This document shows, piece by piece, positions 37,623 through 38,782 of a stretch of 64,000 nt of DNA (the stretch's first letter is position 1; each line of letters begins with the position of its first letter). Made by a program: the position numbers and the translations under genes. Source of the stretch: Escherichia coli (GTDB lineage Bacteria > Pseudomonadota > Gammaproteobacteria > Enterobacterales > Enterobacteriaceae). The stretch lies in the NCBI RefSeq assembly GCF_044647545.1, contig NZ_CP172818.1; one strand, given 5' to 3'. The notes beneath the pieces are model-generated. The model searched no databases and was not told the origin of the DNA. It saw only the letters and a list, made by a program, of their open reading frames with translations.

Positions 37623-38782
37623 CTGTTTTATTTATTACGTCGTATCACCACCCTACACTACGCACGCAAAAAAAATATTCCATTTTTGATAAAAAATATA
37701 GAAAAATAAATTTTAAATTTATTAAATTAATTTTTTTTTTTTTAAAAAACAAAATATATAAAAAATTATTTTCTTTATAGAAATTAAAAAAAATTAAACA
37801 TTAAAGGAAAAAATAGAATAAATAAAAAAAAAAAAAATTTTTTTAAAAAATTATAAATATTATATTTTACAATATAACATTATAAAATTCTTTTTAAATC
37901 ATAATAAAAAAAACAAAAACAAAGAATAAAAATAAAAATAAAAAAAGATAATAATGATTATTTTTTATAAACATATGATAAAATGATTAAATTTTAAATA
38001 TTTTAAAAATATAATTATATAAAAAATAAATAAAAAAAAAAAAAATAAAAAAAAAAAAAAAAAAAAAGTTATATTATTTTTATAAAAAAATTATTTAATT
38101 AAACAAAAAAAAAATAAAAAAAGAAAAAATAGATAAAGATAAAGATAAATTAATATAAAAAAAGAAAAAAAAGATAAAATTTGTAACCTAAATTTTATTA
38201 TTTAAAATATTACTAAAAAAGAAAAAGAGAAAAGAAAAAAAAAAAAAGTGAAATGTAGTATATGTAAATAAAAAAAAAAAAAAAAAATTAAAAAAAAAAA
38301 AAAAAAAAAAATAAAAAAAAAAAAAAAAAAAAAAAAAAAAAAAAGAAAAAAGAAAAAAAAAATAAAAAAAAAAAAAAAAAAAAAAAATAATAAATTTTTA
38401 TAAAAAAAAAAAAAGAAATAGAAGAAAAGGAATAAAGAAAAAAAAAAAAAAAAATATAAATATTTTTTTTTTTTTTGTTTTTTGTGTTAGGGTAAATTTA
38501 AAATATAATATAACAAAAAAACTCAAATTTATAATATTATGTGTATATATTTAGTTTAAAGAGTTTTTTAAGAGAAAAGAAAGAAAAGAAAAAAAGAAAA
38601 AATAAATAATGTTTTAAAAATAATTATAACACAAAATAAAAACAAAAAAGTGTTCATGAAGGGAATCGATGTAGAGGATGCACATATAAAAATAAAATTA
38701 AAAATATAACTTTATATATGTTTGTTTTTTTTTCTCAGTTGCGCATCCCAGAGGATAAGAAGGAAGAAGATAAAAGTGGGAG
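37623..38782. other. anomalous low-complexity, extremely A/T-rich block (poly-A dominated), non-coding, not native to this E. coli locus
   Basis: Abrupt composition switch right after the malZ stop; A runs of 22 and 32 nt (38290-38311, 38313-38344); no ORF of 60 aa or more internally; malZ-acpH spacing about 1.16 kb against the few tens of bp I recall; boundaries approximate. Confidence 0.8.

Follow-up and report, generated by a model that had tools for sequence, protein, structure and literature searches.

How does a stretch of more than a kilobase consisting mostly of A and T come to stand between malZ and acpH in an Escherichia coli chromosome? The window analyzed here (64,000 nt of contig NZ_CP172818.1, assembly GCF_044647545.1) has a background of about 52% G+C, and within it positions 37623-38783 form an anomalous A-rich block of 1161 nt, with base frequencies of.60 A,.04 C,.08 G, and.28 T. 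Over 38100-38740 the composition is 11.5% G+C and 64% A. An earlier note, made from the letters alone, had picked out short tandem motifs and a possible splice-acceptor-like tract in this part, and had called them consistent with eukaryote-like or generated low-complexity sequence. The question is thus whether the block is foreign DNA, a form of something native to this site, or not the DNA of any organism.

The surroundings of the block are those of an E. coli chromosome of ST648 type, by match to the public genomes ECONIH1 and FDAARGOS_497. Compared with these, the left flank (6501-37673, 31 kb) has no mismatches, and the right flank (38784-64000, 25 kb) has none either, with 6 gap positions; combined, this is about 56 kb without a substitution. 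On one side of the block is malZ, which is identical to its ECONIH1 counterpart through the stop codon and is the last correct sequence ahead of the block; on the other are acpH (on the minus strand), queA, and tgt. The malZ-acpH interval is a natural hot spot of variation: in K-12 only 4 bp separate the two genes, while 21% of genomes have a gene there. In ST648-type genomes the interval is occupied by a 1.65-kb segment, made up of a spacer and a 481-codon hypothetical gene.

Of 5,426 complete E. coli genomes, 1,128 carry this accessory segment, among them O157:H7 and all of the closest relatives of the window. All 1,128 copies are intact, with a mutual identity of 90-100%. The 481-aa product (WP_022645275.1 / WP_038431952.1) is encoded by EGY17_RS15225 in FDAARGOS_497 and by ECONIH1_RS02200 in ECONIH1. 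The gene has about 37% G+C, encodes a lysine/glutamate-rich EKIAxK repeat, and has an A-rich repeat of its own, with four copies of GAAAAAATTGCG. No Pfam or NCBIfam family was matched by the protein, and a PADLOC assignment was weak (E = 5.5e-4, 16.5 bits) and is not trusted. The natural counterpart of the block is taken here as positions 1710-3155 of L001, corresponding to NZ_CP033850.1 2771690-2773135. Table 1 lists the features of the window that bear on what follows.

Table 1. Coordinates in the window of the A-rich block, the features in and beside it, and the other differences from ST648 genomes.
Feature	Position	Strand	Basis or remark
15 nt lost directly after the tauD stop (tauD-hemB spacer)	2112		Alignment to ST648 genomes
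K-12 patch, 100% identical to K-12 MG1655 yaiT::IS3	3726-6511		2.8 kb in ehaB
malZ (maltodextrin glucosidase), intact	35805-37622	+	ORF list; annotation of matching genomes
Spacer downstream of malZ, ST648 type, damaged	37623-37671	+	Alignment to ECONIH1 and FDAARGOS_497
A-rich block, apparently a shortened colinear version of the segment (promoter region and 481-codon gene)	37672-38783	+	Global alignment
AGATAA, three copies	38131-38148	+	String confirmed; in a part without detectable gene homology
Near-homopolymeric A tract, 81% A	38266-38454	+	Tandem Repeats Finder, period 1, 189 copies
“Complex island” GTGTTCATGAAGGGAATCGATGTAGAGGATGCACAT	38651-38686	+	Aligned to L001 approx. 3017-3075, 3′ part of gene
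Polypyrimidine-AG tract TTTGTTTTTTTTTCTCAG	38721-38738	+	Aligned to AATGTTTTTCTTACAGTTG of the accessory gene
acpH (ACP phosphodiesterase), natural stop overwritten	38735-39361	-	ORF list; ST648 comparison
4 nt lost directly after the yajD stop (yajD-tsx)	45394		K-12 REP insertion breakpoint
2 nt lost in the yajO-dxs spacer	52446		K-12/ST648 breakpoint

The block and the accessory segment share more than their position. The 49-nt spacer that flanks the gene in ECONIH1 and FDAARGOS_497 also flanks the block, at the same site, with no mismatches and 9 gap positions: AGCAT is lost right after the malZ stop, followed by four isolated single-G dropouts. Aligned globally to the ST648 segment, the block scores 180, as against -43 ± 20 for shuffled sequence, -92 for the block in reverse, and -100 ± 28 when its 50-bp pieces were permuted (z of approximately 10-11 relative to the shuffles and the piece permutations). 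When parts of the block were placed freely, 37672-38099 fell on L001 1683-2270 and 38100-38740 on L001 2273-3117, which are contiguous. In a position-constrained test of the two halves of 38100-38740, none of 200 shuffles reached the observed score for either half, and significance persisted when shuffling was restricted to bins of 20 nt.

The signal is unevenly distributed along the block. In tests by 100-nt intervals it is strongest at the left (z = 10.3, 5.9, and 2.5 over 37623-37922), and it reappears at 38223-38322 (z = 3.0), opposite the GAAAAAATTGCG repeat of the gene, and at 38623-38722, the interval with the island and the polypyrimidine-AG tract (z = 3.9 when compared with the part of the gene predicted for it, a score that none of 200 shuffles reached). 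The near-homopolymeric A tract, in which runs of A reach 32 nt, faces this same fourfold repeat and the lysine/glutamate-rich stretch. No homology was detectable in these tests at 37923-38222 (z of about 0 for 38123-38222) or 38423-38622, and some of the block may therefore be free-running low-complexity sequence. Placed freely by itself, 38421-38740 missed the expected spot, and only the position-constrained test was significant for it. A dot-plot of exact matches of at least 9 nt put 16 of 71 on the diagonal band, compared with 12 of 60 for the reversed control; this is not significant, because A-rich k-mers match everywhere. By these alignments the block appears to be a badly degraded, colinear version of the accessory segment and not foreign DNA, and the suggestion of a eukaryote-like origin gives way to an E. 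coli source at the exact site. Compared with the natural gene, the block is 30% shorter, has 12% G+C rather than 37%, and has no frame.

The motifs that first drew attention to the block can be considered in this light. The strings themselves are there: the triple AGATAA (given earlier as approximately 38131-38150), purine runs of the AGAAA/GAAAA type (at 38573-38602), and the more complex island, for which the earlier range of 38640-38700 can be narrowed to that in Table 1. They exceed chance expectation only weakly. Of 1000 dinucleotide shuffles, 4.8% contained a perfect threefold hexamer, of which the block itself has two; Tandem Repeats Finder reported low-scoring, overlapping A-rich periodicities only. 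The AGATAA triplet aligns loosely to GGGAAGGTTAATGCCGATAA of the accessory segment. It and the purine runs are treated here as chance low-complexity debris without function. The island and the polypyrimidine-AG tract, by the alignments in Table 1, are instead remnants of the original gene, likewise without function.

The polypyrimidine-AG tract had been compared to a eukaryotic 3′ splice acceptor. The literal string TTTGTTTTTTTTTCTCAG is indeed similar to one, although just 12 nt of it before the AG are pure pyrimidine, with an interrupting G at the fourth position. The host, however, is E. coli, and the tract aligns to coding sequence: the codons TGT TTT TCT TAC AGT TG (C F S Y S C), approximately 60 nt upstream of the stop of the accessory gene. 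An exon-like frame, a 5′ splice site, and a branch point context were sought as marks of a eukaryotic intron and were not found; the flanking “exon” of the supposed acceptor is the garbled end of the block. The string thus stands, but the acceptor reading was rejected, since the flanks are E. coli, the tract maps to bacterial codons, and no frame follows it. The final 45 nt of the block, 38738-38783 (TTGCGCATCCCAGAGGATAAGAAGGAAGAAGATAAAAGTGGGAGA), are purine-rich yet not of low complexity; their alignment with the genuine 3′ end of the segment is poor, and E. coli genomes contain no match to them.

Other kinds of feature were looked for as well, with the negative outcome that the earlier note had anticipated. 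Tandem Repeats Finder and self-comparison showed only irregular poly-A-type self-similarity at offsets of 8-15 nt, without the repeat-spacer periodicity of a CRISPR array. ARAGORN found no tRNA or tmRNA genes in 37000-39500, and there were no Rfam matches at E ≤ 1 on either strand of 37300-39100. The longest stop-free stretch in the block, on the minus strand, runs to 94 codons and would encode poly-Phe/Lys, and a tblastn search for a protein-level trace of the 481-aa gene in the block gave nothing above chance. The block lacks the intact 481-codon frame, and the nucleotide identity of at least 90%, that all natural copies have.

The direction of change is more informative than any motif. At aligned positions, 97% of A and 82% of T are retained. 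Substitutions in the block are mostly to A (89 from G, 69 from C, 50 from T), with 17 from C to T, and 506 bases of the segment are deleted, as opposed to 19 inserted; the deleted bases are 60% G+C, compared with 37% across the gene. Altogether, roughly half of the bases of the segment are changed or lost in the window copy. Damage sets in gradually, with the very base that follows the malZ stop, and ends abruptly at acpH. This spectrum is strand-asymmetric, with everything going to A, and is unlike known mutagenesis. Hypermutation of the deaminase type was considered and rejected: C to A changes far outnumber those from C to T, and there are in addition the T to A changes and the many deletions. 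Diversity-generating retroelements mutate adenines, whereas here adenines are the conserved class, and the genes next to the block include no reverse transcriptase or the like. A natural divergent allele was rejected as well, given the close identity of all natural copies, the perfect flanks, and the lack of any genome that matches the block; ordinary divergence is excluded by a change of about 50% beside 56 kb without substitution.

The block is not the only anomaly in the window. Across the 64 kb there are four other differences from ST648 genomes: the three short losses and the K-12 patch of Table 1. The patch spans the 5′ part of an autotransporter gene, IS3, and a downstream part, where the ST648 relatives have an unalignable allele of the ehaB passenger region; it corresponds exactly to the interval over which BLAST fails to align K-12 with ST648. 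At its left joint a single additional C (3725) produces a TGA after codon 30 of ehaB. In three-way alignments, the small losses prove to be ST648 junction bases, located where K-12-specific REP insertions have their breakpoints. Between tauD and hemB the window has the ST648 spacer in shortened form and not the K-12 version; this shortened form was found in none of 5,424 E. coli genomes. The A-rich block also has no match in these 5,424, and searches of three contig collections (genome, metagenome, and viral) gave no occurrence of a 36-mer taken from the complex island.

When structural differences between K-12 and ST648 are mapped over the window, there are six clusters of at least 20 nt. Anomalies occur in five of these and nowhere else; the sixth, at mak-araJ, is clean, a point against a reference-anchored origin, although the K-12-specific insertion of 102 bp there is a simple tandem REP duplicate. 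The anomalies are thus confined to structural differences between K-12 and ST648, and the reference sequence is kept where the two cannot be aligned, as expected of a reference-anchored artifact.

Very probably, then, a real gene region has been corrupted here by some non-biological process. In this respect the earlier description of the block as “generated” was near the mark, although its derivation from a real E. coli gene had been overlooked, as had the related anomalies elsewhere in the window. As to its source, the observed derivation from the gene, the spectrum of change, the co-location of anomalies with K-12/ST648 differences, and the K-12 patch lead us to infer, with moderate confidence, that an ST648-like genome was reconstructed with K-12 MG1655 as the anchor. 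The route might have been a read-to-reference consensus, or the polishing of a K-12 draft, with ST648-like reads. Where the sample could be aligned to the reference, its sequence would emerge perfect; where it could not, as in the ehaB passenger domain, the reference sequence would stay; and at complex indel breakpoints the junction bases of the sample would be dropped. An insertion absent from K-12 would have to be built column by column from noisy, mutually unaligned copies. In that case only bases robust to drift in register, those in runs of A and T, might survive the column voting, and isolated G and C would lose the vote to A, the most frequent base nearby, or be deleted. A pure K-12-referenced short-variant consensus was rejected as the sole cause, as it yields none of the 1.1-kb insertion; the shortened ST648 form of the tauD-hemB spacer and this insertion imply that insertion calling from noisy reads is needed too.

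A toy model of such a pile-up gives a similar product. Twenty left-justified noisy copies, with 5% deletions, 3% insertions, and 3% substitutions, were voted column by column, and a column was kept at an agreement of at least 40%. The resulting sequence had a length of 1160, with.53 A,.07 C,.10 G, and.30 T, close to the observed values for the block; with a related parameter set, the fractions of each base kept, converted to A, or deleted were also closely matched. The model is more smeared than the block, with an adjacent-base change rate of 0.37 (0.44 observed) and longer homopolymers, and the register of the real block at 150-300 nt from the left anchor is better than simple drift predicts. 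A neighbor-copy test for smeared register was uninformative (0.64, compared with 0.61 for the null). Known artifacts of reference bias and polishing have the same combination of perfect sequence where aligned, reference sequence retained elsewhere, and lost junction bases. Insertions garbled and shortened by polishing are comparable to the block, whose bulk statistics the unaligned pile-up reproduces.

Several other origins might be proposed. A second non-biological one, which is possible but clearly the less favored, is that the window was made or altered computationally, whether through a deliberate synthetic perturbation or as the output of a generative or denoising sequence model. A process of this kind would copy well-known sequence exactly, revert to K-12 where a sequence is unusual, and collapse into A-rich output on a rare gene. 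It would fit the onset of damage at the first base past the stop codons of malZ, tauD, and yajD, and a process running from left to right would suit the gradual onset at the left and the abrupt end at acpH. Also in its favor are the lack of detectable gene homology in the middle of the block and a texture richer than that of the pile-up model. Long generations from autoregressive genomic language models collapse into low-complexity or homopolymeric sequence (bioRxiv 10.64898/2026.01.17.700093), which resembles the drift of the block into near-homopolymeric A. This collapse, however, yields homopolymers of multiple kilobases after hundreds of kilobases (bioRxiv 10.64898/2026.01.17.700093), whereas the block, 1.1 kb long, stays partly colinear with a real gene and gives way to 25 kb that match the strain-specific sequence exactly. 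To regain that much ST648 sequence without a mismatch would be beyond a free-running model; the true sequence would need to be imposed outside a few segments, and the return of homology near the right end implies that the process had the true sequence throughout. The tracking of K-12 alignment breakpoints by the anomalies is also more simply explained by a reference-anchored consensus.

The remaining candidates would make the block real DNA. In the first, which is very unlikely, a strand-asymmetric hypermutation acting locally in the living cell would have worn down the accessory gene by writing A and deleting bases. Candidate routes would be translesion synthesis over a heavily abasic template, under the A-rule (A is inserted opposite non-instructive lesions), or replacement of the gene by a dATP-biased, error-prone reverse transcript. 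Change of everything to A with deletions, on one strand, is what insertion of A opposite such lesions would leave, and the malZ-acpH interval is, as noted, a hot spot of natural variation. Such erosion would nevertheless have altered about half of 1.6 kb and spared 56 kb of flanks completely, with no reverse transcriptase or similar gene adjacent, and would leave unexplained the K-12 patch with its extra base and the junction losses at three other breakpoints. Nor has it left a trace in the E. coli genomes or the three contig collections searched. In the 189-nt tract with 81% A, runs of as many as 32 A would be expected to be unstable in E. coli. The full form of this reading, in which the block is real DNA of a natural ST648/K-12 mosaic strain whose accessory gene was overwritten with A and shortened by deletions, in place and by a process acting on one strand, is exceedingly improbable; if true, it would represent a mode of gene inactivation not described before, by a localized mutagenic process not known so far. 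Foreign AT-rich eukaryotic DNA of the Dictyostelium or Plasmodium type, whether from contamination, chimeric assembly, or horizontal transfer, can be almost entirely discounted. The arguments for it are compositional only (the low G+C content of 38100-38740, the long runs of A, and the polypyrimidine-AG string). Both flanks are colinear E. coli sequence at one site, with no chimeric join; the left 300 nt and the right-hand island derive from the E. coli accessory segment, and the “acceptor” maps to codons of its gene.

With corruption in a K-12-anchored reconstruction as the preferred reading, the chief value of the block lies in what it says about data quality: a corrupted stretch can pass as exotic “eukaryote-like” DNA. 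It was unmasked by comparing the flanks with close relatives, by identifying the usual occupant of the site, and by examining colinearity together with the direction of change, and this recipe could be applied elsewhere. The window is best regarded as a hybrid record, ST648 in its backbone but K-12 in a patch of ehaB, and with junction bases missing; neither the apparent frameshift in ehaB nor the apparent C-terminal extension of acpH, nor other findings from the window, should be taken as biology. The extension illustrates how such a record can mislead. The acpH ORF encodes 208 aa instead of the natural 193, and its last 17 residues deviate from the ST648 protein (a change of two residues and 15 added). 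The exact 208-aa form has no record among 153 billion gene positions, and, as a consequence of the corrupted block, it should not be taken for a real AcpH variant. Its stop codon is in fact supplied by the block: it is the TCA of the polypyrimidine-AG tract, read on the minus strand.
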